64,000 nucleotides of DNA. Origin: an uncultured Verrucomicrobia subdivision 3 bacterium. Lineage in GTDB: Bacteria > Verrucomicrobiota > Verrucomicrobiia > Limisphaerales > UBA11358. Below, in pieces: positions 972 through 62,818 of the stretch. Every line of letters begins with the position of its first letter. Within the stretch, counting starts at the first letter, position 1. Both the position numbers and the translations under genes were made by a program. The notes beneath the pieces were generated by a model. The model was not told where the DNA came from. It saw only the letters and a list, made by a program, of their open reading frames with translations, and searched no databases. The stretch spans positions 69,487-133,486 of the forward strand of contig CAIPKV010000059.1 of the NCBI GenBank assembly GCA_903865745.1, given 5' to 3'.

Positions 972-3401
972 TTGCAAATTTCCAGCCAAATGAGCCTGTT
1001 TAAATTCATGCCGACCGACAAATGCGGCCCACATTTCGGGGAGCGTGTTTGTTGGCTGATGATTTTCTGGCTGTTGTCGATTTGCTGTTGGGCAGCAAAT
1101 GGGAGGCTGTCCGCAGCAGACATCTCAAGCAATGCCGGTGTCATTAGCACTGACGCTACTTCACACAGTTTCAATGTCACCGCTTATTTAGTTGAAGGTA
1201 GCACCCTGCTCTCCTCAAACGATTTAGTCCCGCTGTTTACCAAATACACGGGCAATAATATCGGCATCGAAGACGTAGTAAACGTCGCCACCAGCTTGCA
1301 CTGGGAATTTTACAAGCGTGGGTATCCCCTCATGAGCGTCGCCATTGCCAAAGATCGAATTACCAACGGCATTGTTACGTTGAATGTTTTTCAAACGGCC
1401 ATTCCTCAGATTGTCGTGTCTGGTGAATGTTATCTCCGGTTTACTAATAGTCCTCCGACCGTGCCAGCTACCCCGGCAGAAATGGCTGCGGCGCGTGCCG
1501 CTTTAGCCCAACGGATGGCTGACCTGAGCGTCGAGGAGAAAACTGCCGAACTAAAGGCTAACGATACTCGGGTTCACGTAGCGTCCACGAATGCTGGTCC
1601 CCGATTTGCCGTTAACAAATACCTGATTGATGGCAATTCCATCCTGCCGCCGAAAGCCATGGCCACTGCCCTTACTAACATCGATGGAGCTTTCGGAACA
1701 AATGTTAGTTTTGATGGAATTATCACCGCTGCCACAGAACTTCAGCGGGCCTATCGGGAGCGCGGCTATGTAACGGTGTCGGTAACTGTGCCGCCCCAGA
1801 AGCTTACCAATGCCGTCGTAAAACTCGCGGTAACCGAAGGTCGTCTTGTCGTTATTACCGTCACTGGAAACCATTATTTTAGCTCCAACAATGTTATGCG
1901 CTCGCTGCCAAGTCTGCATACCAATGTGATTCTCGATGGCCCGGTGTTTCAGGCGGAACTAAACCGGGCTAATGCCAATCAAGACCGGCAAATCTATCCC
2001 GTCATCAGTCCCGGACCTGACCCCGGCACCAGCGCGCTCAACCTCAAGGTGAAGGACCAATTGCCAATTCACGGCAAATTAGAATTAAATAATCAAAGTT
2101 CGCCCGGCACACCTGTAATGCGGGTAAACGCATCTCTAGTGGATGACAACCTATGGCAGTTGGAGCATTCATTGGGCGTTCAGTATAGTTTTGCACCCGG
2201 TCAGTTTAAGCCGGGCGACTGGCCTTTTTACGATGTGCCAGCGGTGGCCAATTACAGCACGTTTTACCGCCTGCCGCTGGGTAACCCTGAGCCGATTGAA
2301 AATCTAATCGCAAATAAACCCGGAAATTTCGGTTACGATGAAGCCACCCACAAGTTTAACTTGCCGCCGCCGACCGGCCGGCCTGACCTGACCTTTTTTG
2401 CCAGCCGCTCGACCATTGATGACGGTGTAACGGTATTGTCCCAAACTACCCTTTATAACACCAACGGCAACAGCTTGGTTAATACCGTGGATCATCAAGA
2501 CACCACGGTTAATCAAGACTTTGGTACGCGCCTGAACTGGCCGCTACAGACTTCGGCTGATTTACAAACGACGCTCTCCGGGGGCTTGGATTTCAAGACC
2601 TACCGGTTGAGCAGTGCCCAGACTAACCTTTTTACGCTGACCAGTTCCGAGATTAATTACAACACCACCCCACCCTCAACTAACATTGTAGTTTCGACTG
2701 ACCGTTCCCCGGTTCCATTTACTGTAAAACGAATCCAATATCTTCCTTTGGCTGCCAGTTATAATCTCAACTGGCGCGACCCGCTGGGCACCGCCAGCCT
2801 TGGTCTGGGATTGAGTGCCAACGTCTGGTATTCTAGTTATGTGTCAAAATCGTCCAGTGTTACCAATATCAATACTTACGGCGAGAAGGCACTTCAAGAG
2901 ATCACGGGTTCCAAAGAGTCCACTGGTTATTGGGTAGCGTTGACGCCGGCCTTTTCCCACAACTTTCAGTTCTATACCAATTGGCCCACCTCCCTCCGGG
3001 CTGACGGCCAATGGGCTAGCGAACCGCTGATTAGCAACGAGCAATACGGCATCGGTGGTGTCAACAGCGTGCGCGGCTATCACGAAGGGGAGGCATTCGG
3101 CGATACCGGTTGGCATGTCTCGCTCGAACAGCAGACTCCGGCCCATGTCATCGGCATGGCCTACGGCAATACGCCGCTCACGGTTCGGGGCACGCTATTC
3201 ATGGATTATGGGGCCGCCTATTTGTTGGACCCCCAAGGTCGGCCAGACTGCGTTCAACTCTGGGGCACTGGAATGGGGATGACCGCCTCAGTCGGTGCGC
3301 ACTGGCAATCCCGCTTACTAGTTTCGCTGCCGTTGATTGGGACCAGTGCCACGCAACAAGATGAGCCATTTTTTAATTTTGTCCTGACCGCGCAGTTCTA
3401 A
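972..3401 (+). CDS. Two-partner-secretion outer-membrane transporter (TpsB, ShlB/FhaC/HecB family)
   Basis: It has several POTRA-like segments (FNVTAYLVEGSTLL.., FAVNKYLIDGNSILP.., RLVVITVTGNHYF). These are followed by a long beta-barrel ending ..FFNFVLTAQF with a terminal aromatic residue. It lies directly upstream of a TPS-domain exoprotein. The start is uncertain, with Met codons at 972, 990, 1008 and 1059. The last precedes a signal-like MIFWLLSICCWAANG. Confidence 0.8.
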   Translation: MQISSQMSLFKFMPTDKCGPHFGERVCWLMIFWLLSICCWAANGRLSAADISSNAGVISTDATSHSFNVTAYLVEGSTLLSSNDLVPLFTKYTGNNIGIEDVVNVATSLHWEFYKRGYPLMSVAIAKDRITNGIVTLNVFQTAIPQIVVSGECYLRFTNSPPTVPATPAEMAAARAALAQRMADLSVEEKTAELKANDTRVHVASTNAGPRFAVNKYLIDGNSILPPKAMATALTNIDGAFGTNVSFDGIITAATELQRAYRERGYVTVSVTVPPQKLTNAVVKLAVTEGRLVVITVTGNHYFSSNNVMRSLPSLHTNVILDGPVFQAELNRANANQDRQIYPVISPGPDPGTSALNLKVKDQLPIHGKLELNNQSSPGTPVMRVNASLVDDNLWQLEHSLGVQYSFAPGQFKPGDWPFYDVPAVANYSTFYRLPLGNPEPIENLIANKPGNFGYDEATHKFNLPPPTGRPDLTFFASRSTIDDGVTVLSQTTLYNTNGNSLVNTVDHQDTTVNQDFGTRLNWPLQTSADLQTTLSGGLDFKTYRLSSAQTNLFTLTSSEINYNTTPPSTNIVVSTDRSPVPFTVKRIQYLPLAASYNLNWRDPLGTASLGLGLSANVWYSSYVSKSSSVTNINTYGEKALQEITGSKESTGYWVALTPAFSHNFQFYTNWPTSLRADGQWASEPLISNEQYGIGGVNSVRGYHEGEAFGDTGWHVSLEQQTPAHVIGMAYGNTPLTVRGTLFMDYGAAYLLDPQGRPDCVQLWGTGMGMTASVGAHWQSRLLVSLPLIGTSATQQDEPFFNFVLTAQF

Positions 3402-3531: not shown

Positions 3532-6500
3532 ATGAAAAAGCTTTTTAAAAATCAGGTATACCAGATACCGGGTGCTGCCCTGCTCCTTTTGGCTGGGCTG
3601 GTTTGTCCGCCCCAGACGAGAGCCAATCCTGTCGGTGGTACGGTCGCCCAAGGCACCGCTTCGATTTCGTCGGCAGGCTCCCAGACGACGATTAATCAAT
3701 CATCCGCCAGCGCATTTATCAATTGGCAAAGCTTCAACATCGGAGCCGGCGAAACGACGACGTTCAATCAGCCTTCTGCCTCCTCGGTGACTTGGAATTA
3801 CATCAGTGACCCCAGCGCCTCCAGTATCAACGGAAATATTAATGCCAATGGGTACGTGGTGTTGCAAAACCCCAATGGTTTCACCATCGGCGGTGCGGCC
3901 ACCATTTCTGCCCATGGTTTGGTTATGACCACGGCTGCTACGCCCGCTCTGGATCTTTCCAGCGGGGGTGCCTGGTCTTTCAGTGCACCGCCGCCTACCG
4001 CCAAAATAATTAATTACGGACAGATTAACATCGCCGGTGGCGGCTCCGCCTATTTGATTGCCAACGACATCGAAAACAACGGCACGATTTCGGCACCGGG
4101 TGGAAAAATCGGCCTTTATGCCGGCAAAACCGTTTTAGTTTCCATGAGCCCGGATGGCCGCGGCTTGAGTGCCCAAGTGACGCTGCCTCAAGGCTCCGTT
4201 GATAATGAGGGCAATTTGGTTGCTGATGGCGGCAGCATTGCCGCTCAGGCCAAAATGGTGAATCAAAATGGACTGGTCCAAGCCAACTCCGTTCAAAACG
4301 TAAACGGAACCATCGAGCTCGTGGCAAGTGATTCGGTCAATCTGGGAGCCAAATCCGTAATTTCCGCGCAGGGTGACAGCCAGGGTTCGAGTGCGGGCGG
4401 AACAGTGACTATCAAGTCCGACACAAGTTTTTCTGATCAGGCTGGTTCCACTATCAATATTTCCGGCGGTGTTCAAGGCGGTAACGGCGGACAGGTTTCC
4501 ATCTGCGCGCCGTCGATGAATTCGGTACAATCAGTCATTAACGGTCAGGCGACGGCCGGATATCTGGGGGGGGCTTTAAGCATTGACCCGGCGAATATCT
4601 GGCTGGCTTCCTCGTCCAGCGATTCCAGTGCGCCGAGCGGCTACACAGTTATTGATGTTAATTCTTTTAGCGGCCTGTCGCTCATTAACCTCCTGGCGGA
4701 TAACAATATCACTTTAAACACCGTTTGGAATCTGGCCGATCAATCCGCCACCGCCAGCTTGAGCCTGACCGCTGGTAACAACATCACTCTGAATGACGGA
4801 TCGGCCATCAAAGCCGGTCAAGACTGGAATGTCAGTCTGACCGCCGGTACCGCAGTGACAATGAAATCTGAAATAACCGCCGGTAATGACGGCATATACC
4901 TCGACGGAAGTGCTTATCTCCAATCCCAGAATGGCAACTTGACCCTTTCGACTGCTAATGAAGTTATTGTCCAAAACGGTGCCATCCGGACCGTCGGTGG
5001 CGGCAATATTGATGTGACGGCGCAATACGGAGATGTGAACTCTGGCAATAACATCAACGGTTTTTCCTTTGGCCAGAGAAAGGCACCTTATTATATCGTA
5101 AATTCTGGTAATCTGGGCGGCATCAGCACAGCGGCTGGGGGCAATGTCAACATCACTGCCGGTGGAGATGTCATTAGCTTTTTACCCATTCAGAGTAATT
5201 ATGCCGCCGCTAAAAATGATGCGGGCACTGGTGCTTTTGGTTCCCAACCCGGTAATGTCACCATTACTGCCGGCGGCAACGTAATTGGCCATTACGTATT
5301 GGCCAATGGCGTGGGCAGCATCACGGCGGGCGGCAACATCGGCGCACCCCTCACTGACCCCAATCCTTCCGACGGTTTTGCCCTCAGCCTCATTTCGGGC
5401 AGTTGGAGCATCAAGGCCCCGCATGGCAGCATCTATGTGCAGGAAGTGCGGAATCCAAACGGGATTTTTGGGGAGCGATCCGCGAATTCTTCGCCGAACA
5501 ATTATGCGGGTTATCATTATTTTAATTATGACCCCAACGCCTCGGTGCAGTTTAATGCCGGTAATTCGGTTGAATTCACCGGCAACGACGCCCCGGACTC
5601 ACCGCCTTCCGGAGGTGGCCTAACCATTCCGATTTTGTATCCTCCGTCACTTTCGGTCATCACCGGTTCCGGCGATTTCATAATGGACACTTCCGTCATC
5701 CTCTTTTCTTCAGCCAATCAAAACTTAAATCTTAATATTGGCGGAAATTTTATGAGCGGCAATGGTGCTAATGCTGTTAGCTTGGAAATGTCCGACAGCG
5801 CCGCCGTTCGCTGGATTGCTGACTCAACCACCTTTGGAACAAGCGACCACGCAGCCAGCCCGCCGAATGTCAACAACCCTAACCCGGTTGATATTACGGT
5901 CGGTGGAAACGTGGATTATATCGATCTTTACACCACGCACGTAACGCATATGACCGTGGGCGGCGACTTGAATAATTCCGGTTTTGCGGGAGAAAACCTC
6001 CACGCCAGCGACATCACCACCATCAAAGTAAACGGTAAAATTTACAATAGCCCGATTTATACCTTTGCCAGTATCGGTAATAATACCATCGTGAGTGCCA
6101 ACCCCCAACAGCCTGGGCTGTGGGATTCGGTCTTTAATTTGGCGGTGGACCCAGCCTTGGTCTCGCAAATCACGAGTTTTGACGCCACCAAAAATAATCC
6201 CCAGATTGCTGCCAATGGACTGGCCTACTACATGAAACAAGCAGGTTATCTGCTTTTTCCCAGCGGGCTGGGTTCCAGCTCTCAATATGGCATCAATCCT
6301 GGCTTCCTATATGACCCTAGTTCCAAACAGTTGGCGTTTAGAGGCAATATGTCTAGCGTGCTGTCTGCTAGCCAGATTGCCGCTTTGGAGGGTGGCACGT
6401 TCACCGTTATCGTGGCAAATACCCAAGGCCAACCCATCTTGGATGCTAACGGCCACATCCAAGTAACCACCTATAAATTTGCTGGGCAAACGGCCATAGC

Positions 6501-7779
6501 CAAGTTGGATTCCGAAAGCGTAAACTCAACCTTAAATCAAGCCCTCGGTTTTTTGATTGGCGGTCCTGGCAATTTTAATATTTCGGCCGCTTCCTTAGAT
6601 TTAGGTTTTTCCCCTGGAATACTTTCGTTTGGCTTCGGTGGACCTTACTCGAGCCTGCAATCCGTGACAGGCACCCTTGCCTCAGGCGGGGCTGGCGTCA
6701 ATGTGATGGTGGGGGGCGATATCAATTTGGTTACCTCGGCGATTGCTTCGCTGGATGGTGGCAATGTGAACGTCAACGCCGGCGGTCAGATGGTTCTTAG
6801 CGAGGGCACCTTTAACTTTGCCAACAGCACCTGCTATGGCATCTACACTACCGGGCATAGTGATGTCAACGTGACTGCCGGTGGCGACATCGATGTAGGG
6901 GGCGGATGCATCGGAACCTTTAACGGCGGCAATGTCTTTGTTGAATCCTTTACTGGGTCGGTAAACGCTGGCAGCGGGGAAAACCGGGCCCTCTACGTAG
7001 AAGGTGCGTATCTTGATGCGAATGGCCAGCCAGCCTTCACGGAATACGGAAACCTTACGGATATTGAGGCCTTGAAATTAGATCCAGCCCCGTATGGCAG
7101 CGGTATTTTAGCAGAGTATCCTACCAAAAAATATCAGACTCCGGGCGGCAGTGGCCTGCCGGGCAATATTACGGTGATTACGCCTAAAGGTAATATTGTT
7201 TCCAGCCGTGGTGGTATTTCCCAATTCGCCTTAGATGGCAGTATCGCCGGTGGCCCAATCGTAAATTTAATTGCTGGCACGAAGGGCGTTACTGCTACTC
7301 CAGATCAGGGTAACATTATTCTGGGCGAGGGCGGGGTAGTCGGCGGTACCGTCAATCTTACCGCTTCCGGCAACATTCAAGGTTTAATCGTTTCCCGACA
7401 GAACGCCAATGTTTCCGCCCAGCAAAACGTCGGCATCACGTTGCTGTCCGGCGGCGACGCCAATGTTTCATCGGGTGGTACCACCTCCGGCACCATTGTC
7501 GGCATTGGGGCAGTGAATGTCGCTGGCGGCGGCGGGGTGACGGCGTCATTGCTCGGCCAGAATGTTTCGGCGAATGGTGCGTCCCTCGGCAGCACCTTGG
7601 GCACCAGTTCCGGCGCCACGGCTTCCAGCCAGGCGGCCGCGCAACAATCGAGCCAGGCGAGCACACAGCAGGATACCACCGGCAATTCTGACGATGATAG
7701 TAAGAAGAAAAAGAAACCGGCCCTCCACAAGATAAGCCGGGTCACGGTCCTCCTCTCTTCAGCAGTGCCAGCGCACTAA
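3532..7779 (+). CDS. Two-partner-secretion exoprotein (TpsA, filamentous-haemagglutinin type)
   Basis: It has a signal peptide (..LLLLAGLVCPPQTRA) followed by a TPS/haemagglutination-activity domain: NPVGGTVAQGTASISSAGSQTTINQSSASAFINWQSFNIGAGETTTFNQP...GNINANGYVVLQNPNGFTIGG (NPNG motif). The body is more than 1000 aa of G/N/S/T-rich beta-helix-type repeats (GGNVNVTAGGD, GGNIDVTA). The tail is S/Q-rich and ends in KKKKKP. Confidence 0.85.
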   Translation: MKKLFKNQVYQIPGAALLLLAGLVCPPQTRANPVGGTVAQGTASISSAGSQTTINQSSASAFINWQSFNIGAGETTTFNQPSASSVTWNYISDPSASSINGNINANGYVVLQNPNGFTIGGAATISAHGLVMTTAATPALDLSSGGAWSFSAPPPTAKIINYGQINIAGGGSAYLIANDIENNGTISAPGGKIGLYAGKTVLVSMSPDGRGLSAQVTLPQGSVDNEGNLVADGGSIAAQAKMVNQNGLVQANSVQNVNGTIELVASDSVNLGAKSVISAQGDSQGSSAGGTVTIKSDTSFSDQAGSTINISGGVQGGNGGQVSICAPSMNSVQSVINGQATAGYLGGALSIDPANIWLASSSSDSSAPSGYTVIDVNSFSGLSLINLLADNNITLNTVWNLADQSATASLSLTAGNNITLNDGSAIKAGQDWNVSLTAGTAVTMKSEITAGNDGIYLDGSAYLQSQNGNLTLSTANEVIVQNGAIRTVGGGNIDVTAQYGDVNSGNNINGFSFGQRKAPYYIVNSGNLGGISTAAGGNVNITAGGDVISFLPIQSNYAAAKNDAGTGAFGSQPGNVTITAGGNVIGHYVLANGVGSITAGGNIGAPLTDPNPSDGFALSLISGSWSIKAPHGSIYVQEVRNPNGIFGERSANSSPNNYAGYHYFNYDPNASVQFNAGNSVEFTGNDAPDSPPSGGGLTIPILYPPSLSVITGSGDFIMDTSVILFSSANQNLNLNIGGNFMSGNGANAVSLEMSDSAAVRWIADSTTFGTSDHAASPPNVNNPNPVDITVGGNVDYIDLYTTHVTHMTVGGDLNNSGFAGENLHASDITTIKVNGKIYNSPIYTFASIGNNTIVSANPQQPGLWDSVFNLAVDPALVSQITSFDATKNNPQIAANGLAYYMKQAGYLLFPSGLGSSSQYGINPGFLYDPSSKQLAFRGNMSSVLSASQIAALEGGTFTVIVANTQGQPILDANGHIQVTTYKFAGQTAIAKLDSESVNSTLNQALGFLIGGPGNFNISAASLDLGFSPGILSFGFGGPYSSLQSVTGTLASGGAGVNVMVGGDINLVTSAIASLDGGNVNVNAGGQMVLSEGTFNFANSTCYGIYTTGHSDVNVTAGGDIDVGGGCIGTFNGGNVFVESFTGSVNAGSGENRALYVEGAYLDANGQPAFTEYGNLTDIEALKLDPAPYGSGILAEYPTKKYQTPGGSGLPGNITVITPKGNIVSSRGGISQFALDGSIAGGPIVNLIAGTKGVTATPDQGNIILGEGGVVGGTVNLTASGNIQGLIVSRQNANVSAQQNVGITLLSGGDANVSSGGTTSGTIVGIGAVNVAGGGGVTASLLGQNVSANGASLGSTLGTSSGATASSQAAAQQSSQASTQQDTTGNSDDDSKKKKKPALHKISRVTVLLSSAVPAH

Positions 7780-7979
7780 GCGGCGTCAGCTGCGGATAAA
7801 AATTAGCGCCAACATTCCTTGGCTGATTTGTTTTTTAACCGTCCAGTCGTCTTGGCCGATCAGGACTGAATCCGGACAATGGAAAAGACGGAACCGGGTT
7901 TTTAATTCCCTGTCTCCGGCTTTTCTTGTTTGAATTTTACTTAGCGAGCTTAGCGAGCTTGGCGTCTTGGTGGTTAATT

Positions 7980-8597
7980 CTACGTGCTCATGTGGCTGAC
8001 TGACTCGCTCCATTCGCTGCGCTGGTTGCCCACGCCCAATACGCGGATGCGGATGCCATATAACTGGCCGGGCACGAGGCCTGCCAGCACGATATTATGC
8101 GGGTCGGTGAAGTTTTCCCAATGGCCCCAAACGCCTGCCACCGTGCTGATTTCCACTTGATACGTCCACGCCTCCGGGTCGATTACCACCGTGAGACCGA
8201 GCTTGGTGGAGGCCACGTTGGCGATGGCGGTGATGGAGGAACCCGTGACAATCGACGCATTATGGGTCAGGTTGGCAAGCTCGAAGCCGGAGGAGAGAAT
8301 GGTTTCCGCATCATTCTGGGCAATGTTTTCGACATAGTTGGCTTGCGTATCCATTTGCCCGATGACCAGCGCTTCGAGGATGTGCTTGTGCTCCGTATCG
8401 GCCATGGTGCCTTGCTCCGTTTTCACCGTGGCGGCAATCAGGTCTTTAGCCGTGGTATCCATCAGCGCCGGGTCTACGTCCGGCTTGATGAATTTGATGT
8501 TGCCGTTCATTTTGCCACTCACCGCCAGGGATTTGTTGGCGAGCGGTGCGCCCGTGAGCAGCCGATACGCGCGTTTGATTTTGTTTTTAGTTTTCAT
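7980..8597 (-). CDS. Small protein with helical N-domain and C-terminal FN3-like domain (family member P1)
   Basis: This 205-aa ORF has a C-terminus with an FN3 signature: WTYQVEISTVAGVWGHWENFTDPHNIVLAGLVPGQLYGIRIRVLGVGNQRSEWSESV. It has the same length and architecture as the ORF at 32232-32852 (..FSGLIPGQIYCVQVSVAGTAGTSDWSAW..). The antisense 197-aa ORF at 8097-8690 has no recognisable features. Confidence 0.6.
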   Translation of the reverse strand: MKTKNKIKRAYRLLTGAPLANKSLAVSGKMNGNIKFIKPDVDPALMDTTAKDLIAATVKTEQGTMADTEHKHILEALVIGQMDTQANYVENIAQNDAETILSSGFELANLTHNASIVTGSSITAIANVASTKLGLTVVIDPEAWTYQVEISTVAGVWGHWENFTDPHNIVLAGLVPGQLYGIRIRVLGVGNQRSEWSESVSHMST

Positions 8598-8719
8598 AAT
8601 CAGAAGTTTCCCGTCGTCTACTCAATGAACGTTCCGGCGAAACCCCCGATGCGAGCGCGTTGGATTGTTAATTGCTACCTACTGTGTTAACAGTCTGCAA
8701 CCCCACGTCAATGGCAATC

Positions 8720-9120
8720 ACGACCTTTCGGGCAGATATATTTTATGCCAGGCGGAATGAAATTGACGATGCTTCCAGCCAAGTTGACTGCAAGCGCAGT
8801 GACTTGACCGATTAGCGCGGCCACAAAACCTGCCAGCCACGGCAGATTTACCGCCGTCGGCATGACGGCGACGACAGTCGGTGCCACGTTTACTACTCCC
8901 GGCATGGCGATGACTGTAGTCGGCATGACAAACCTTACAGTGTTCGTGACGAACCCTGTAGTCGGGATGACAAACCAAATCTTCGGCAAGGCAAACTCAA
9001 CAGTGAACGGTGGCAAACACTATCTTCGGGATGACAAACCTTACAGTGTTCGTGGCATCGCTTACAGTCGGCGTGGCAAACCCTGCAGTGTTTGTGGCCC
9101 CCAAACGGGCAAAAAGTGGC
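8720..9120 (-). repeat. Array 1: about 19 degenerate tandem units of 21 bp (two units are 22 bp)
   Basis: On the minus strand, units begin GCCAC/GTCAT at 9120, 9098, 9077, 9056, 9035, 9014, 8992, 8971, 8950, 8929, 8908, 8887 and 8866, and continue in register to about 8720. The consensus is GYCAYGMMGACTGTAAGGTTT. The units at 9056 and 8950 match at 20 of 21 positions. Confidence 0.85.
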
Positions 9121-9732
9121 TTTTTCGTCATAAAAACGCATAAAACCCTGAAATTTGCTCTTTTCTCGCTGGCAGATGGTCAAATAGCGACAGTTGCAGC
9201 CGGGGGAATTTAACGCCAAGGCGCGAAGACGCCAAGACGCGGGATGACAGGTGGAGCGAGACCGGCCAATTGGTTCTGGCGAATCCTGAAAAGATCAAAT
9301 TACCAGCCCAAGCTTGTCCGGCTTGCGCAGCCTTGGGTATGAACACTGCGATTCTTTCTACCTAGAATGAATTTTATGATTCAAACAAATCAATTCCGTA
9401 TTCTCTGTGGTTGCCACAGTAGATTTTAGTTTCAGCAATCGAAACCACTGCCAGCTAAGTGGAAAACCCCGATTCGACAACAAAATCTAAAAACGTTCAA
9501 AGTGAACTTTTGGTGACAAAGCCAGAAGTGGACCTTCATTTTAGAATGAAATATTTATAAAATACATAAATTCAATATTTTACAATATATTTTAACGCGT
9601 CATAAAATCGGCGCAGCATGTCCTAAGACATGAAGTTTTTGTTTCGCTAGTCTGTTAGAGTGTTCGGACTTGAAGCCCCACTTGGGTGGGTCAAGCTACG
9701 TAGAAAACCAAAAACCGGAACAAAAAATAAAA

Positions 9733-15199: not shown

Positions 15200-15233
15200 C
15201 CCCCTGCAAAATTGATTTTTGCAGGGGGTTTTG
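15200..15233 (+). terminator. Rho-independent terminator after the 13997-15178 gene
   Basis: There is a perfect 12-bp stem, CCCCCTGCAAAA-ttgat-TTTTGCAGGGGG, followed by TTTTG. The track start of the next ORF (15212) lies inside this hairpin loop. Confidence 0.75.
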
Positions 15234-15427
15234 TTTATCTAACGCCTTGGTTAATCTGTCGAAGAACCCAAATGCGCCCATTAAAAAGAGTAATATTTGC
15301 GGTTTCGGCGGAATTGGCCGACGCGGTTAACCGGAGCTGTTATGTCGCAGGCTTGCTGGCTGATTGTCACACATTTGTAACCAAGCTGACATGGTTTTGT
15401 AGCGTGGTGTTTGCACCATTGCCCGCC

Positions 15428-17173
15428 ATGCGAAAGAACGAAACGAATCGCCAGGCTGCCTGGCTGACCAGCCTGCTGCTGATTCCGGCGGTTTTATGCG
15501 CAGATAACGCTTTGTGTGCTGATGCTGCCAGCGCCAACAATGCCAGCGATGCGAGCGATCTGCTGTTGAATTTATTTATTGAAAAGGGCTATGTCAGCAA
15601 AGCCGAGGCGGAAAAAGTCAAGGCTGAGGCGGAAAAGCGTCAGGCGGAACTAGATCAATACAAGGCTGAGGCGGAGCAGTACAAGACCGAGACCGAACAG
15701 CTCAAGGCGGATGTGGCCCAACTCAAAGCCAACGAGGAATCGTATCGGACTAATGCCGTACCCAGCTATTTGCCGGCCGCTAAATGGAAAATTAATCCTG
15801 GCGACAAATCTATCGAGCTGTTTGGCGATATCCGGATGCGTTACGAAGACCGCCAAATTCAAGACCCCAAAGGTAACAAGGTAACTTGGGATCGGCTGCG
15901 TTATTCCTTGCGCCTAGGTATGCGGGGAGAGGTCTTTGATGATGTTTATTACGGTTTCCGGTTGGAAACTTCCTCCAACCCGCGCTCGTCCTTCAACACG
16001 TTGGGTACGCCCACCGGCTCGTCGACTGCCCAGTATCCGAATCCGTTCACTAAAAACAATGAGACCTTGAATGTTGGTGAGGCCTATATTGGTTTAAAGT
16101 ATGGTGGTTGGCTGGATGTAGTGATGGGCAAGATGCCCAATCCGCTCTTTACCTCGACGATGGTCTGGAGTCCGGCCATAAGCCCCTCTGGTGCTGCCGA
16201 AACTCTGACCCACGCGGTGGGCGATATGGATTTATCCGTGACCTTGGGCCAGTTCATTTATCAGGCCACCAACCCCAACCAGTCATCGCAAGGGTTTTTG
16301 CCGCAGAACGCGAATAATTCCAGCCAGCCTTTTTTGATGGCCTTCCAAGGCAAGATCGACTATCACCTGACCAAAACGGTAAACTTCAAGGTGGCACCCG
16401 TTTTGTACTATTACACCCGTTATCAAAACGGCCAGAACCCGTCCGCAAATGGTGCTTATTACAGCCCGGACTTTTCGGGAACCTATGTGGGTCAGGGACA
16501 AAAAGTCGGGGTAAATGGTGTGCCGGCTTCCTATAACTTGGCCGGTAGCACTCCGGGCTTTGACGGCTATTATGCGAATCAAACCGGCATCAACGATCTG
16601 TTGGTTCTCGATATTCCTTTGGAAGTCAGCGTAAACCTTAAAAAAGTAAAAGTGCGTTTCTACGGAGATTACGCCCAGAACCTTCAGGGTAAAGAACGTG
16701 CCGATGCCGCGTACAATGCGGCTAATTCATTCTACTTCTCGGACAACGGTCCCGGCGCGGGGCAGATCAACCCGATTAATTCACCCCAAACGCATGATAT
16801 TCGCGCTTATCAGTTTGGCATTGGCGTGGGCAGCACCAATCTCATTTATGGGCCGTCACAAGGATTAGTTTACGGCAACGAATCAAAAAAGAACGCTTGG
16901 GAAGTGCGAACCTACTGGCAGCATATCGAACAATACTCACTGGATCCCAATCTGATTGACTCTGACTTCTTTAATGCCACCGAAAACGAACAGGGCGTCT
17001 ATGCCGCAATTGCCTATGGTTTGTTTGACAATGTGATAGCGACGGTGCGCTACGGCTATGCCCGGCGTATCAATGACCAACTGGGTACTGGTGGCAGCAG
17101 CGGCGATCTTCCGCAAATGAATCCGCTGAACTGCTACAGCATCTTTCAATTTGATCTAGGTGTCAGATTCTAA
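15428..17173 (+). CDS. Porin-like outer-membrane beta-barrel with N-terminal coiled coil
   Basis: The ATG at 15428 gives the signal peptide MRKNETNRQAAWLTSLLLIPAVLCA. It is followed by a KAEAE-rich coiled coil (AEAEKVKAEAEKRQAELDQYKAEAEQYKTETEQLKADVAQLK). The rest shows an alternating beta-strand pattern and ends FQFDLGVRF (terminal Phe). Confidence 0.65.
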   Translation: MRKNETNRQAAWLTSLLLIPAVLCADNALCADAASANNASDASDLLLNLFIEKGYVSKAEAEKVKAEAEKRQAELDQYKAEAEQYKTETEQLKADVAQLKANEESYRTNAVPSYLPAAKWKINPGDKSIELFGDIRMRYEDRQIQDPKGNKVTWDRLRYSLRLGMRGEVFDDVYYGFRLETSSNPRSSFNTLGTPTGSSTAQYPNPFTKNNETLNVGEAYIGLKYGGWLDVVMGKMPNPLFTSTMVWSPAISPSGAAETLTHAVGDMDLSVTLGQFIYQATNPNQSSQGFLPQNANNSSQPFLMAFQGKIDYHLTKTVNFKVAPVLYYYTRYQNGQNPSANGAYYSPDFSGTYVGQGQKVGVNGVPASYNLAGSTPGFDGYYANQTGINDLLVLDIPLEVSVNLKKVKVRFYGDYAQNLQGKERADAAYNAANSFYFSDNGPGAGQINPINSPQTHDIRAYQFGIGVGSTNLIYGPSQGLVYGNESKKNAWEVRTYWQHIEQYSLDPNLIDSDFFNATENEQGVYAAIAYGLFDNVIATVRYGYARRINDQLGTGGSSGDLPQMNPLNCYSIFQFDLGVRF

Positions 17174-32231: not shown

Positions 32232-32852
32232 TCACACTACCATGAGAATGGCCCACGCGCTCCAGTCGCTGGTGCCGGCGGTGCCTGCCACGCTCACTTG
32301 CACACAATAAATCTGTCCGGGAATCAGACCGCTAAACGTCGTGTAGGTCGCCGTGGACTGCTTGGTTTGCAGGATTACATCCGGGTTGGCAGCGAGCGCC
32401 AGCCGCCAATTATGAATGAGCGTGCCATAGACCGGCGCCACGCTGGCATCCAAATCCCCGCTGTAAGTTCCCCGGGAGAGCTCGGGCATCGTCGGTTTGG
32501 GCAGGTCGCCAATACGGAAACGTAGCGGCTTTTGAATGGGAAAATTACTGGTCAGTAGCACCGTGAGGTTGCCGTGACATTCCTCCGTCACATCCAAGGC
32601 GAGTGAGCGGACCAAGGGATAGAGCGCCCGCCGTTTTTGAACTTTAAGCGAAATCGCGCCCCGGGCAAAATCGGACGCCTCCACTAGCGCGCGCTCAAAT
32701 TCAGCCAGCGCCGCCTTGATCAGCAGCAGCAACGCCACCGCTTTGGGATAGGCCGCATTGCCGGTCATGCCGGCGAGGATTTTTTTGATATCCAAGACCA
32801 AATCGGTATCAGTGCGCCGGGTGAGGAAACGAATGGAAGGTTTTACAATCAT
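32232..32852 (-). CDS. Small protein with helical N-domain and C-terminal FN3-like domain (family member P2)
   Basis: This 206-aa ORF is a paralogue of 7980-8597. Its N-terminus is ..ILAGMTGNAAYPKAV...RALYPLVRSLALDV..LLTSNFPIQK. Its C-terminus is ..YTTFSGLIPGQIYCVQVSVAGTAGTSDWSAW. Confidence 0.6.
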   Translation of the reverse strand: MIVKPSIRFLTRRTDTDLVLDIKKILAGMTGNAAYPKAVALLLLIKAALAEFERALVEASDFARGAISLKVQKRRALYPLVRSLALDVTEECHGNLTVLLTSNFPIQKPLRFRIGDLPKPTMPELSRGTYSGDLDASVAPVYGTLIHNWRLALAANPDVILQTKQSTATYTTFSGLIPGQIYCVQVSVAGTAGTSDWSAWAILMVV

Positions 32853-33008: not shown

Positions 33009-33012
33009 CATT

Positions 33013-33285
33013 TCGTCACCTGACCCGCCGCGTAAGCCACTTGGTAAAGCGCCAGTGGATGTTAAAGAAACCCGCTTGCCACCGTTCACAGCCTCGCTGT
33101 CAATTGGCAAAACAAATCCGCCACCTGACATAAGCGCTTTGCCATGTGTCAAAACGACTGACTTAACTTTAAAAACTGCTTTGTCACCTGGCTTAATTAG
33201 GCTGCCACCTGTCAGAGCCGTCGTGGCAGGTGGCAAAATGATGGCGGAACTCATTGCCAAGCCTGTGTCAGGTGGCATCGTGGGG
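33013..33285 (+). repeat. Array 2: 13 degenerate tandem units of exactly 21 bp
   Basis: Units start at 33013 and recur every 21 bp. The core TTGCCACCTGWCA is clearest at 33076, 33118, 33139, 33181 and 33202. Inverted copies lie at 33223 and 33265. The sequence at 33076-33089 is identical to the complement of 9003-9016 in array 1. Confidence 0.8.
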
Positions 33286-45976: not shown

Positions 45977-46135
45977 TTATCCGTCAGCGTTCTCGCCATG
46001 CCCGGCACAGCCACATCCGGCTAATTCAATGCAATCTTTGCAAAGCGTCTGCCCCGCCATTTCCACCACCTCAAAGCTCCCGCACCGCTCGCACGTGGCG
46101 TTTTCCGGGTCCTGACCTTCCGTAGTCGAGCTCAC
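45977..46135 (-). CDS. Candidate 52-aa zinc-ribbon micro-protein overlapping the trpE stop
   Basis: My own translation from the GTG at 46135 is VSSTTEGQDPENATCERCGSFEVVEMAGQTLCKDCIELAGCGCAGHGENADG. It contains CxxC-x15-CxxC. GTGA overlaps the trpE stop codon. It is below the 60-aa cutoff of the ORF track. Confidence 0.35.
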   Translation of the reverse strand: MSSTTEGQDPENATCERCGSFEVVEMAGQTLCKDCIELAGCGCAGHGENADG

Positions 46136-47646
46136 GCCTTGCCAAACCCCTCCGCCAACGCGATGGCCTTCCGCATTGCCATGGATTTGTTTACCGTCTC
46201 CTGATATTCGCCTTCCGGCGTCGAATCGTTCACCCAGCCGCCGCCGGCTTGGACGAAGGCCCGGCCGTCCTTGATGAGCGCCGTGCGAATGGTAATGCAG
46301 GTGTCCAGATTACCGTTGAAGGAAAAATAGCCCACGCAGCCCGCGTAAGTGCCGCGTGTGGTCTGTTCGAATTCAGAGATGATCTGCATCGCGCGGATTT
46401 TCGGCGCGCCGCTGACCGTGCCGGCCGGAAACGTCGCGCGCATCAAATCATAATTCGACTTATCGGCGGATAAATTCCCTTCCACCTGCGACACGATATG
46501 CATGACATGGCTGTAACGCTCCACGATCATCAAATCCTTCACCGACACGCTGCCGAAATCGCAGACGCGGCCGATATCGTTGCGCGCCAGATCCACGAGC
46601 ATCACGTGCTCGGCGCGTTCCTTCGGGTCGGCGAGCAGTTCCTTTTCCAACGCCTTATCCTCATCGTCCGTCTTGCCGCGACGACGCGTGCCGGCGATGG
46701 GGCGAATCTCCACCTTGCCCTCTTCGCAGCGAACGTGCAGTTCCGGCGACGCCCCGACCAGCGCGAAACCATCCAGCTCCAGCAGAAACATGTACGGCGA
46801 AGGATTGATGCTGCGCACTGCGCGATAAATATCCACCGGCGACGCCTTGACCGGCGCGGAGAACCGTTGCGAACCAACCACCTGTATGATGTCGCCCGCG
46901 CGAATGTATTTCTTCGCCGCCTCGACATTCGCAAAAAACTTCTCCGACGACTGGTTGGATTCAAAGGAAATCGGCGGCACCTCCGCTGGCAACGTCACCG
47001 GCTGATGTTCACTCGGCTGTTCCAGCAGCGAGACGATGCGGTCAATCTCGCTCGTCGCATTTTCGTAGGCCTCCGCGGGCGATTCAGCGTCCTCCAAGAC
47101 CGCGTTGACCAGAATGGTAATCGTCTGCTGCGCGCGGTCGAAGGTGAGCAATTGGTCGGCGATAAGGAAATACATCACCGGCGTCTTCAATTCATCCACC
47201 GGCGGACGCGGCACGGACGGTTCCACGTCATGGATGAATTCGTAGCCGATGAAGCCGATGGCACCCCCCGTGAAGCGCGGCAGACCAGGCGTCGTCACCG
47301 CGCGGAATTTCTTCATCACGCGCTCGACCACTTCCAAGCCGTCCTTCACGTCGCGACCGACCACGAAACTTTCCGTCACGCGCCCGTTCTCGAAGATTTG
47401 GACTTGGCTGCCGTCCTGTCGGATGACGGCGCGCGGGTTGCAGCCCACGAACGAGTAGCGCCCCACATGTTCGCCGCCTTCGACCGACTCGAACAGGAAC
47501 GATTCGCCCTGACCCCGGATTTTGCGATAAGCCGAGAGCGGCGTTTCGAGGTCGGCCAGGATGCGACGCGCGACGGGAATGAGATTTCCCTGCGTCGTGA
47601 GCTTCAAAAATTCAGCAGCAGTCGGCGAATACATAGAAATAAGCAT
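46132..47646 (-). CDS. trpE: Anthranilate synthase component I
   Basis: This 504-aa ORF has the chorismate-binding-enzyme motifs ..GTYAGCVGYFSFNGNLDTCITIRT.. and LFESVEGGE. Confidence 0.93.
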   Translation of the reverse strand: MLISMYSPTAAEFLKLTTQGNLIPVARRILADLETPLSAYRKIRGQGESFLFESVEGGEHVGRYSFVGCNPRAVIRQDGSQVQIFENGRVTESFVVGRDVKDGLEVVERVMKKFRAVTTPGLPRFTGGAIGFIGYEFIHDVEPSVPRPPVDELKTPVMYFLIADQLLTFDRAQQTITILVNAVLEDAESPAEAYENATSEIDRIVSLLEQPSEHQPVTLPAEVPPISFESNQSSEKFFANVEAAKKYIRAGDIIQVVGSQRFSAPVKASPVDIYRAVRSINPSPYMFLLELDGFALVGASPELHVRCEEGKVEIRPIAGTRRRGKTDDEDKALEKELLADPKERAEHVMLVDLARNDIGRVCDFGSVSVKDLMIVERYSHVMHIVSQVEGNLSADKSNYDLMRATFPAGTVSGAPKIRAMQIISEFEQTTRGTYAGCVGYFSFNGNLDTCITIRTALIKDGRAFVQAGGGWVNDSTPEGEYQETVNKSMAMRKAIALAEGFGKA

Positions 47647-47795
47647 GAAGAAATTCGCCTAAAGAAACAACCAGTTTAGTAGGTCGCCACTGAAAAGTCC
47701 GGCGCGGCTACCGGAACCGGCGCCGCCCCAATCGCCCATAGATTTGCCATTGCCGCGTCGAAAAACCCATAAATGAGTCCGTTTCACCCTCAAGC

Positions 47796-48026
47796 GCGTA
47801 TTCGTTTGCTACAAACGCATATGCAAATAGACCATCCGCATATGCAAACGTGGCATCCGCATATGCAACTGCGGTATTCGCGTATGCAAATGGGGCAAGT
47901 GCATATGCCATTGGGGCATTCGCATACGCAGATGCTCCAATTGCATATGCGGATGCGACAATCGCATAGGCGATTGCCATAAACAAACACGCGGATGTTC
48001 CAAAGGAACACGCAGTTGCCGTCCCC
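47796..48026. repeat. Array 3: 11 tandem units of exactly 21 bp carrying a GCATATGC palindrome
   Basis: Core starts lie at 47817, 47838, 47859, 47901 and 47943 (perfect GCATATGC). One-mismatch cores lie at 47880, 47922 and 47964. More degenerate units lie at 47796, 47985 and 48006. Confidence 0.9.
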
Positions 48027-48091: not shown

Positions 48092-49168
48092 GTGCATCTG
48101 GCCCATTTGCGACTTCGTGACTTCCGCAATTACGCGCGGTTGGACGTGGATTTTGCGCCCGGCTTTCACCTGCTGCTCGGCGACAACGCCCAGGGCAAGA
48201 CCAACATTCTCGAAGCCGTTTATCTCATGGCCACCCTGCGCTCCTTCCGCGGCGTCGGCGGTGCCCAAATGATCCGGCACGGTGCGAAAGGCTACTTCGT
48301 CGGCGGCAATGTCGTGGGGCAGGGCGACCACGAGATCAAAATGTATTGGGCATTGCGCGAGCGGAAGCTCACGCTCGACGGCCAGCCCGTGAAGAAGCTG
48401 GCGGATTATCTGGGTGTGCTCCGCACGGTGGTGTTTTGCACCGAAGATTTGCAACTCATCAAAGGCACGGCGCGCGCGCGGCGGCGGTTCATCGATTTGC
48501 TCCTGGCGCAGACGCAGCCCAGCTATTTGCCATTGCTCCAGCGCTACATGCACACCGTCCGCGCCCGCAATGCCTTGCTCAAGCAGCGTGCGGTAGATGA
48601 AGCCGCGCTCGAAAGTTTTTCCACCGAACTCGTGAAGCTGGGTAATGAAATTATCCGTGCCCGCAGCGCCTTGGTGCCGAAGTTTTCACCACTCGCGCGG
48701 CTCGCTTATCGGCGCATCTCAAAGGATGCGGAGGAACTGCGCATCGAATATTCGCCGAGCGTGAAGCAGGATTTCGCCGTGGAACTCGCGCAGTCGCGTT
48801 CGCGTGAACGGACATTTCGCGCCACGCTGGTCGGCCCGCACCGCGATGACTTACAATTGTTGCAGAACGAGAAGTCCGCCGCGCAGTTCGGCAGCGAAGG
48901 CCAGAAGCGCACGCTCGCCATTGCCTTGAAGATGGCGCAGGCAGAATTTCTCGCCGGCATCCACGGCTCGCCGCCGATTCTGCTGATCGATGACGTAATG
49001 GGTGAACTGGATGTGAAGCGGCGCTGCGGCTTCCTGCCCTTGCTGGAATCGGCGCGCAAGAGCAGCGGCCAGGTCTTTATGACCTGTACTGAAGAAAACT
49101 GGCCGAGCGAACTCAACAAAGATTTACAGCGCTGGCAGGTGAAGACGGGAAGTTTGCAAAAGCTTTAG
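48092..49168 (+). CDS. recF: DNA replication and repair protein RecF
   Basis: The sequence is (GTG)HLAHLRLRDFRNYARLDVDFAPGFHLLLGDNAQGKTNILEAV (Walker A) plus the signature FGSEGQKRTLAIALKMA and LLIDDVMGELD. Confidence 0.9.
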   Translation: MHLAHLRLRDFRNYARLDVDFAPGFHLLLGDNAQGKTNILEAVYLMATLRSFRGVGGAQMIRHGAKGYFVGGNVVGQGDHEIKMYWALRERKLTLDGQPVKKLADYLGVLRTVVFCTEDLQLIKGTARARRRFIDLLLAQTQPSYLPLLQRYMHTVRARNALLKQRAVDEAALESFSTELVKLGNEIIRARSALVPKFSPLARLAYRRISKDAEELRIEYSPSVKQDFAVELAQSRSRERTFRATLVGPHRDDLQLLQNEKSAAQFGSEGQKRTLAIALKMAQAEFLAGIHGSPPILLIDDVMGELDVKRRCGFLPLLESARKSSGQVFMTCTEENWPSELNKDLQRWQVKTGSLQKL

Positions 49169-61902: not shown

Positions 61903-62044
61903 TTAAATAGCTTGCGGTCTCAAATAAATGGCAGAGCATCGGAGCATTCCCCGCTGAATGGCGGGATGTAGTAGGCTGTAATCAAATGTTGGTTTTCGAC
62001 AACGACTCCCTGCCTGCGGGTCTTTGCCGAAGGAGCACAACATT

Positions 62045-62422
62045 ATGAGCTACATCGACCCTGATCAATTGCATGGCGCGCTGGATGGTTTGATCACCTT
62101 CACCGGCAAAAACGCCGCCGCCATCACCGCCGGTGACTTGGATCCCGTCGGTGTTACCACCAAGCTGACGGCCATCCGCGACGGACTCAAAGGCACGAAA
62201 GACATCCGTGACGGAATCAGAACCGAACTGACCACCGCGCAGCAGGCTTTTGCCGGAGCGGCCGCGACTAACTACACCGCCTTTAGCAGCCTGGTGGACG
62301 CCATCTCCGGTGCGTTGGGCAAGACCACGCCGCTCGCCCACCAGGCGTTGAACTACCGGATGCACCTCAACATCCCCGCGCAACATCGTACGCCCGCGCC
62401 CGTTCCGCCGGTTACTGTCTAA
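62045..62422 (+). CDS. Small helical hypothetical protein (P3, possible N-domain-only relative of P1/P2)
   Basis: The ATG at 62045 is preceded by AAGGAG with an 8-nt spacing. The sequence is MSYIDPDQLHGALDGLITFTGKNAAAITAGDLDPVGVTTKLTAIRDGL... A strong terminator follows. Confidence 0.6.
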   Translation: MSYIDPDQLHGALDGLITFTGKNAAAITAGDLDPVGVTTKLTAIRDGLKGTKDIRDGIRTELTTAQQAFAGAAATNYTAFSSLVDAISGALGKTTPLAHQALNYRMHLNIPAQHRTPAPVPPVTV

Positions 62423-62465
62423 GAATGGGACGATTCTTCGCAAGTCATTCAACTTAAGGTAGCAA

Positions 62466-62500
62466 CTGAGCCGCTTATTCAAAAAGCGGCTCAGCTTTTT
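62466..62500 (+). terminator. Rho-independent terminator of the P3 gene
   Basis: There is a perfect 11-bp stem, CTGAGCCGCTT-attcaaa-AAGCGGCTCAG, followed by CTTTTT. Its 3' arm is also the first unit of array 4. Confidence 0.8.
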
Positions 62501-62775
62501 GTAAAAGCGGCGTCGCTTTCGGGAAAAGCGGGTCCGCCTACGGCGACGGCGGGTCGGCTTTTTGGATAAGTGGCTCCGCTTTTCCCGTAGGCGGGACCAG
62601 AGTTGCCGACGGCGGGTTCGCCTTGGCCGACGGCGACGCGGCTTTTGGCAAAGGCGGGTCAGCCTTTTGAATAAGCGGCTCCGCCTTTCCCGACGGCGAC
62701 GTCGCTTTTTGCATAAGCGGGTCCGCCGGTGGCGACGGCGAACCCGCTTTCGCTGCCGGCGAGGCTGGATTGAAG
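62484..62775 (+). repeat. Array 4: 14 tandem units of exactly 21 bp (42-bp super-period) built from small GC hairpin/palindrome units
   Basis: The GCGG/GCGA core lies at 62486, 62507, 62528, 62549, 62570, 62591, 62612, 62633, 62654, 62675, 62696, 62717, 62738 and 62759. All spacings are 21 bp. Confidence 0.9.
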
Positions 62776-62818
62776 TTGTCTCGCCATTTGCGCGTAAATC
62801 GTCAATCGTAAATCGTAA

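Follow-up and report, generated by a model that had tools for sequence, protein, structure and literature searches.

In a 64,000-nucleotide stretch of DNA from an uncultured Verrucomicrobia subdivision 3 bacterium (contig CAIPKV010000059.1; hereafter the window), we analysed Array 1, a tandem repeat located on the minus strand 5' of the open reading frame (ORF) of a small protein, P1 (7980-8597, minus). An original prediction had described the repeat as carrying a heptad-repeat ORF interrupted exactly at a 22-bp unit. We show here that Array 1 is non-coding and that it is linked to the P1 family, in which presence and period of the array are conserved while its sequence and copy number turn over fast; the 'broken heptad ORF' is an artefact of repeat arithmetic. 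With moderate confidence, we propose that Array 1 is a cis-acting, helically phased DNA array with an architectural or regulatory role in the upstream control region of P1. Array 1 has a distal motif with A/T tracts on one side and the sigma70-like promoter of P1, a monocistronic gene, on the other, and it would regulate P1 through phasing, curvature or a putative binding protein. The elements of this region, given in window coordinates and in the direction of P1, are:

9099-9193, minus strand: distal conserved motif forming the 5' edge of the module, alignable across related loci.
9098-8846, minus strand: array core, delimited by position weight matrix (PWM) segmentation, autocorrelation at lags 21 and 42 and the repeat families D1 and D2.
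9014-8993, minus strand: the sole 22-nucleotide (nt) unit, GCCACCGTTCACTGTTGAGTTT, located by PWM segmentation and source of the apparent frameshift.
8712-8845, minus strand: degenerate array tail and proximal flank with fading periodicity, containing a GC hairpin and, after it, a short T run.
8824-8845, minus strand: this GC hairpin and short T run, CTGCCGTGGCTGGCAGGTTTTG, within the array tail and proximal flank.
8684-8711, minus strand: sigma70-like P1 promoter (TTGACG, 16 nt, TAACAC), a consensus match only.
8623-8674, minus strand: conserved leader element of ~50 nt at the start of the P1 leader, CAATTAACAATCCAACG...GGGTTTCGCCGG...CGTTCATTG, recognised by alignment.
7980-8597, minus strand: P1, 205 amino acids (aa), with an N-terminal three-helix domain (residues ~10-101) and a C-terminal fibronectin type III (FN3) domain (AlphaFold, Foldseek).

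The core of Array 1 comprises 12 tandem units, eleven of 21 nt and one of 22 nt, with the PWM consensus G[T/C]CA[T/C]G..GACTGTAAGGTTT, which agrees with the unit proposed before. Ten units score 15-24 bits, compared to 9.4 bits for the 95th percentile of the best shuffle score, and the two weaker units fit the double-length gaps between the strong ones (strong-unit spacings of 21, 21, 21, 43, 21, 21, 21, 21 and 42 nt). The sub-types ACTGTAA and ACTACAG alternate, giving a 42-nt superperiod. Self-identity of the core at lag 21 is 0.52-0.54, compared to a whole-window background of 0.28 +/- 0.06 (z = 13.5 against shuffles), which supports the earlier description of a minus-strand array with 21-nt periodicity. 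Its extent had been overestimated: 19 units were counted where the PWM segmentation supports 12 (9098-8846), and the periodicity fades past the core, 21 nt no longer being the top-ranking lag in the autocorrelation of 8800-8708. Of two 22-bp units reported, at 9120 and 9014, the one at 9014 is indeed a phase slip and the only one, while the sequence at 9120 is not a repeat and belongs to the separate motif at 9099-9193 that is conserved in relatives. Because of the 22-nt unit at 9014-8993, Tandem Repeats Finder returned only a 64-nt period (21+21+22) at 8920-9040. The 1072-nt intergenic sequence is identical across six independent metagenome assemblies from different samples, and the extra base is therefore genuine and no assembly error.

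The reading frames behind the original prediction exist. The ATG at 9131 opens a 44-aa ORF (MTKK...VHC, stop at 8997), and the following frame is open from 9016 to 8708 (102 aa); both are mechanical ORFs co-directional with P1. Their heptad register and its break were taken as the sign of a gene, yet both follow arithmetically from repeat DNA and provide no independent evidence of coding: a heptad pattern appears in every frame because the DNA period is divisible by three, and it breaks because of one extra base. By chance, a 21-nt unit is free of stops in a given frame in ~70% of cases (about 0.7 per frame), so a long open frame that shifts at the 22-nt unit is to be expected and uninformative.

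We compared Array 1 with P1-family loci recovered from public assemblies, which are designated by L-numbers (L001 is the window copy). In L009, L013, L020, L024 and L030, stops occur in all six frames of the array, and the gene reading fails this check of orthologous frames, one that the original prediction had itself proposed. The array period is 41 nt in L023, L025, L027 and L031, and the reading frame therefore rotates at each repeat. Nor is the extra base conserved among relatives: 22-nt units number 0, 1 or 3 per array and stand at varying places, with one in the window array, one in L011, three of 16 units in L020 and none in L016, despite 94% identity between the P1 proteins of L020 and L016. 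The three copies in L020 thus identify the 22-nt unit as an ordinary array variant and not as a conserved recoding site. Among the three explanations first offered, the stops, the 41-nt periods and the variable 22-nt units leave the cis-acting array standing, but neither a frameshifted or decaying heptad gene nor a programmed +1 site. For the latter, no shift site was found at a homologous position, and neither frame is conserved as protein.

Gene-level evidence is likewise missing. A search of 5.8 billion proteins returned no homologue of the 102-aa ORF, and the Array 1 ORFs match neither Pfam nor NCBIfam families. Their codon-usage scores (0.003 for the 44-aa and 0.171 for the 102-aa ORF) fall below the 5th percentile of real genes scored in 100-codon windows (0.186; mean 0.44 +/- 0.15). 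When conservation is scored position by position along the units, a period of 3 is lacking and none of the codon phases is consistently weak. Between the arrays of L018 and L019, 14 differences are distributed 8/3/3 over codon positions 1/2/3 and cause 9 amino-acid changes; they are not concentrated at third positions, and no synonymous excess is seen. Neither a start codon nor a ribosome-binding site of the Array 1 ORFs is conserved among related loci, the aligned 'start' being ATG, GTG, ACG or ATT depending on the locus. On the side of a gene stand a 72-aa piece that is annotated as such in three of the six assemblies listed, and a hydrophobic frame that is free of stops in L007, L015, L016 and L018. 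We also considered a third frame with HCKVCH-type CxxCH heptads and rejected it, given the worst codon-usage score (-0.38), its lack of conservation in other loci and no metal or haem genes nearby. Peptides such as FVMPTTVIAMPGVVNVAPTVV are expected to be undetected in proteomics.

What is conserved is the association of an array with P1. In 22 of 25 P1-family loci, we found an array with a period of 21, 42 or 41 nt on the strand of the gene and <=800 nt upstream (z = 7.5-37 against shuffles); the three loci without array are remote or partial FN3 matches, and all of the close relatives analysed carry an array. No other such array was detected in ~135 kb of DNA flanking P1-family loci. A distant paralogue of P1 elsewhere in the window has its own array:

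32232-32852, minus strand: full-length but very distant P1 paralogue of 206 aa (hhalign probability 98.8%, E = 5e-17, 16% identity).
~33010-33285, 160-430 nt upstream of the ORF 32232-32852: the paralogue's 21/42-nt array with a CAGGTG/CACCTG core in alternating orientation.

Relatives of this paralogue (49 proteins, Verrucomicrobiae) also have upstream 21-nt arrays. The unit itself changes from locus to locus: it is GACTGTAAGGTTTGTCATGCC in the window, ACGATCGT-based in L007, CACGCGTG in L013, CAAGCTTG in L024, CATGCATG in L026 and L030, and TTTTCCGCCGGAAAA in L023, L025 and L027. Many units hold a short palindrome or switch orientation, and a 42-nt superperiod results from this. Most loci have 9-18 units per array, and array length can differ two-fold, as in L007 (189 nt) and L015 (94 nt). 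The pair L016/L020 illustrates how local this turnover is: identity amounts to 95.9% in the P1 coding sequence, 98.8% in the distal motif and 90% in proximal flank, promoter and leader, but only about 61%, with ~70 gap columns, in the array. The first 35 residues of P1 are identical in L016 and L020 though their arrays differ in unit type, and the first 22 residues show only two differences between L001 and L011 despite different units; over the first 30 residues, L001 shares 23 with L016 and 22 with L011. In these comparisons, P1 does not co-vary with its array. A short Logan contig (L045), considered as metatranscript evidence, is simply interrupted at the array and then runs on into the following gene; it was thus discarded as uninformative.

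The array is part of a module whose order is fixed in the P1 subfamily: distal motif, array, proximal flank, promoter, leader and P1, followed in most related loci by a terminator-like hairpin, of which the window copy is weak and was missed by our scan. The distal motif starts with CTGTCGCTATTTGACC and ends with GGGTTTTATGCGTTTTTATGACG in the window, whereas the subfamily version starts with CTGTC[G/T]CTTTTTG and ends with GGGTTTTTAGCAT. It carries an inverted repeat of a T tract and an A tract (TTTG.CC ... G.GCAAA), is present as a single copy in the window and can be aligned in L007, L009, L011, L015, L016, L018-L020 and L026. The ATG at 9131, from which the predicted ORF was read, falls within this motif. 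Around the GC hairpin, the first ~40 nt of the flank (~8817-8858) were matched by eye to the segment following the array in L007, L015, L016, L018, L020 and L021. In 13 of 17 loci, a promoter pattern (TT[GT]..., 16-17 nt, TA...[A/C/T]) holds a fixed position 112-120 nt 5' of the ATG, and nine of these 13 have TTGAC.

About 80 nt of the P1 leader are conserved, with the leader core occurring only once in the window. Single-sequence folds give a similar 5' stem-loop in most loci, while the window's own leader (L001) folds differently; the outer-stem sequence differs in L007, L013, L024, L025 and L030, which may mean covariation, and the element is absent from Rfam. The proposed outer helix, CAATCAAC/GTTGATTG, is mismatched in L001, L009 and L015, and the RNAalifold consensus on a MAFFT alignment is weak (only -2.3 kcal/mol), so we did not adopt the helix and keep it as a lead in view of the single-sequence folds. 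Such a stem-loop could stabilise the mRNA or bind a regulator.

Two other functions considered for the distal motif were rejected. As a sigma54 promoter, it has a GG-to-GC spacing that is off by one in most loci (by eye). Its left edge, CTGTCTCTT, recalls the ends of IS4/Tn5, but no inverted copy lies 3' of P1. We further observed that L018 and L019 have near-identical modules, with 98-99% identity across coding sequence, array and proximal flank and 91.7% within the distal motif. Upstream, similarity is lost completely, and this happens precisely at the left edge of that motif, ~700 nt 5' of P1 in L019, where L019 holds a duplicated AAACTGTCG. This divergence point may be a recombination breakpoint at the module boundary.

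The array periods of 21, 42 and 41 nt, together with the occasional 22-nt units, correspond to whole helical turns at 10.25-10.6 bp per turn and are not always multiples of 3. We predicted curvature with two simple wedge models. In these, 9010-9219, which covers the distal motif plus the first units, has the highest predicted curvature of all 210-bp stretches in the 64-kb window, followed by Array 2, another 21-nt repeat described below, and the upstream regions of all 18 other loci tested range within the top 0.05-2.7% of background curvature. Between the distal motif and the -35 box lie 257-570 bp, a distance that modulo 10.5 bp amounts to 5.0-6.0 in six of seven lineages; this clustering is suggestive. 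The proposal of a helically phased control element would thus draw on the conserved association with P1, the fixed module order, a period kept without sequence, whole helical turns, the absence of RNA asymmetry detailed below, predicted curvature and helical register. Function of the array, if any, is best explained as depending on helical phasing and not on sequence.

Several observations weigh against this proposal. The distal motif can be recognised only within the closer subfamily, and none of the locus neighbours consistently encodes a candidate binding protein. Array cores alone are only moderately curved in the models, with median percentiles of 16% and 7% and just six of 22 in the top 5%. 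The register clustering is confounded by shared ancestry and by changes in steps of 21 nt, and the L016/L018/L019 lineage is ~2.5-3 bp off register. In addition, several loci have a hairpin and short T run behind the array, a feature that would also be compatible with a separate transcript of the array.

But how could an array serve its gene while its sequence is replaced? The reason possibly lies in an action at the DNA level that proceeds via phasing instead of sequence. The array would form a helically coherent spacer, curved or coated by protein, and this spacer would fix the geometry between distal motif and promoter and thereby tune transcription of P1. If only the period matters, slippage and the replacement of units can alter their sequence freely, as we propose.

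Doubtful, in our view, is a function as RNA, in which the array would be transcribed as a repeat-containing non-coding RNA or long leader, with a start near the distal motif and an end at the hairpin that precedes the P1 promoter, to serve as scaffold, sponge or series of tandem hairpins. Many arrays do have palindromic or alternating units, the L030 array folds far better than its shuffles (z = -7.3), and GC hairpins followed by short T runs come after the array in the window, L007, L015 and L016-L021. An RNA helix from either strand should, however, favour G:T or A:C mismatches, and in local inverted repeats of 20 arrays we counted 28 G:T and 30 A:C, i.e. no bias towards an RNA strand. Folding z-scores are inconsistent (-1.6 to -7.3), track palindrome content and reveal no common structure: for the window array the gain over shuffles is weak (z = -2.4 and -1.6), no defined structure emerges for L016, and palindromic character is low in the arrays of L009, L016 and the window. 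No convincing promoter was found in the distal motif, either by reading the sequences or by a consensus scan. Rfam 15 gave no match at the gathering score in the window, with just a chance microRNA match (E = 2.9) in 8500-9450. We thus see no sign of RNA-structure constraint on the array.

An unlikely explanation is that a minisatellite arose once 5' of the ancestral P1 and persists by replication slippage and unequal exchange, having no function. Rapid sequence turnover and changing copy number would be expected of such a repeat, no binding partner was found, and the window holds two more 21-nt arrays of unrelated sequence upstream of housekeeping genes. It is harder to reconcile with arrays that persist 5' of paralogues at only 16% identity and that occur at 22 of 25 loci but nowhere in their flanks. 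Moreover, the whole-turn period survives complete replacement of the sequence, whereas neutral arrays are expected to decay or to take arbitrary periods.

We regard as improbable that P1 itself binds the array sequence-specifically, through its basic N-terminus and helical domain, and so autoregulates its gene from an iteron- or centromere-like operator. P1 is the sole gene always in cis, its N-terminus (MKTKNKIKRAYR) is basic and predicted to form a short strand followed by helices, a spacing of 21-22 bp is typical of iterons, and the -35 region of L016-L021 resembles the array unit. Yet L016 and L020, whose P1 proteins share 94% identity and all of the first 35 residues, have unrelated unit types, and L001 and L011 differ at two of the first 22 positions while their units differ as well. 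The N-terminal domain is unlike any known DNA-binding fold (best E = 2.3), and the matrix of the window array finds no match in its own promoter. That Array 1 is a heptad-repeat protein gene, frameshifted, decaying or read via a programmed +1 shift at the 22-nt unit, is hardly credible given the stops, periods, starts, codon usage, substitution pattern and missing homologues reported above.

Among known systems, the closest parallels to the proposed action of Array 1 are the arrays of iterons or centromeres and helically phased curved DNA upstream of promoters, although no Rep or Par partner accompanies it. Iterons, such as those of the replicons R6K, P1 (not to be confused with the protein) and F, and the centromeres of type Ib and type II partition systems, such as parC of R1 and pSK41 and parH of TP228, likewise consist of ~20-bp tandem units at about two helical turns just upstream of the accompanying gene, show an occasional 22-bp spacing and differ between related replicons. 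Iterons are direct repeats of 17-22 bp at ~21-23 bp spacing, and Array 1 conforms to this. In contrast to iterons, which typically number 4-10, there are 9-18 units at most P1-family loci, and Array 1 adjoins an FN3 gene instead of a Rep initiator in a locus that looks chromosomal. Unlike partition centromeres, it has no ParA/ParM or ribbon-helix-helix adaptor adjacent; neither ParA/ParM ATPase domains nor small DNA-binding adaptor domains were found in the neighbours of any locus. Different from both, units of the P1 family change even where the linked protein is 94% identical.

Intrinsically curved upstream DNA, e.g. phased A-tracts, activates or modulates bacterial promoters, and in its classical form it is short (50-150 bp) and A-tract-based. 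Our module resembles it in helical phasing 5' of a sigma70-type promoter, in a distal motif rich in phased T and A tracts and in the top predicted curvature of the window. It differs in that the periodicity resides in a minisatellite of 190-400 bp and arbitrary sequence, whose core has moderate predicted curvature. The repetitive extragenic palindromic sequences and bacterial interspersed mosaic elements (REP/BIME) of enterobacteria and pseudomonads form one family with hundreds of copies per genome, usually at gene 3' ends. They share with our arrays intergenic imperfect palindromes, alternating orientation and a superperiod of ~40 nt, whereas each array here has its own unit, is undispersed and lies 5' of one gene family: within the 64 kb, the Array 1 unit and the flanking motifs occur only at this locus, and each array of the window has a different unit. 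Mycobacterial interspersed repetitive unit-variable number tandem repeats (MIRU-VNTR) are dispersed families inside operons. Like other minisatellites, they are intergenic tandem repeats of tens of bp with varying copy number, some having a period divisible by 3 that gives spurious or short ORFs; we know of no conserved tie of MIRU-VNTR to one gene family or to whole helical turns, while arrays of the Array 1 type are undispersed and tied to the P1 family. Finally, clustered regularly interspaced short palindromic repeats (CRISPR) differ from Array 1, the units of which are contiguous, degenerate and without spacers.

The P1 protein is modelled with high confidence by AlphaFold (predicted local distance difference test values of 91 and 93). 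Foldseek found only generic FN3 matches for the whole protein and no significant neighbour among PDB structures for the N-terminal domain (best E = 2.3). P1 does not belong to any family of Pfam, NCBIfam or PHROG. The codon-usage score of P1 (0.65) is the highest of eight genes scored individually, as is its GC content at third codon positions (0.74), which suggests high expression. The protein collection holds 32 relatives, and a profile search of 1.84 billion cluster representatives retrieved 492 proteins at E <= 1e-30, including numerous full-length members (200-212 aa) and also giant proteins with multiple FN3 domains; the family amounts to hundreds of 50%-identity clusters in public data, and named sources point to Verrucomicrobiae. 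Genomic neighbours vary from one P1-family locus to the next.

In the window, the neighbourhood looks chromosomal, with two-partner secretion (TPS) genes, a porin-like gene and a PEP-CTERM protein. A phage origin was considered and rejected, as neither phage nor viral matches were obtained for the locus, in searches that did not extend to plasmid collections. A partition or plasmid context, suggested by a 205-aa gene followed by a 75-aa ORF, was dismissed too, since there is no Pfam or NCBIfam match and P1 is an FN3 protein. The 75-aa ORF (7786-8013, minus) runs across the region 3' of P1 where most loci hold the terminator and is probably spurious. The TPS pair at 972-3401 and 3532-7779 (plus) encodes a POTRA/ShlB-type transporter and a 1415-aa TPS-domain protein; it is convergent with P1 and ends 200 nt from the end of P1, with the 75-aa ORF in between.

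Two additional periodic arrays were observed in the window. Array 2 (~47790-47975) repeats a 21-nt unit containing the palindrome GCATATGC about 8-9 times. It sits in the intergenic space between two divergent genes, one for anthranilate synthase (46132-47646, minus) and one RecF-like (48092-49168, plus), and is without flanking motifs of the P1 type. In Array 3 (~62430-62770), a 21-nt unit based on the palindrome AAAGCGG..CCGCTTT recurs about 14 times. Between it and the ATG at 62821 (plus) lie four copies of the heptanucleotide CGTAAAT (62793-62820), and the gene starting there resembles a CCA-adding enzyme (N-terminal sequence, by eye only). The 529-aa ORF overlying Array 3 (61982-63571, minus) has no Pfam domain and is probably spurious. 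True coding periodicity of 21 nt, for contrast, is found at 15543-15780 in the N-terminal part of the Porin_5 ORF at 15212-17173 (plus), which encodes charged, alanine-rich, coiled-coil-like heptads (KAEAEKV KAEAEKR QAELDQY KAEAEQY KTETEQL KADVAQL).

The main practical result of this analysis is the removal of a false gene and a false recoding site. Tandem repeats with a period divisible by 3 generally give long 'heptad' ORFs that break at an extra base, and part of Array 1 was indeed annotated by gene callers in some assemblies. On the positive side stands a well-delimited conserved module that pairs a fast-evolving, period-conserved array with an uncharacterised and apparently highly expressed protein family; a full-text search of the literature retrieved no description of this array element. 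Quite tentatively, and at low confidence, we suggest that such arrays represent an unrecognised class of bacterial cis-elements, sequence-independent minisatellite 'helical rulers', whose period is held at whole turns while the sequence is replaced and which are co-inherited with helical-plus-FN3 genes across deep paralogy. They may be read by a putative protein that recognises geometry rather than sequence, and additional examples could include the 21-bp arrays of unrelated sequence that the window holds 5' of recF/trpE and cca. If true, the P1 module would offer a natural system in which DNA geometry, and not sequence, controls a bacterial promoter, and it would show how such elements are maintained by concerted evolution.

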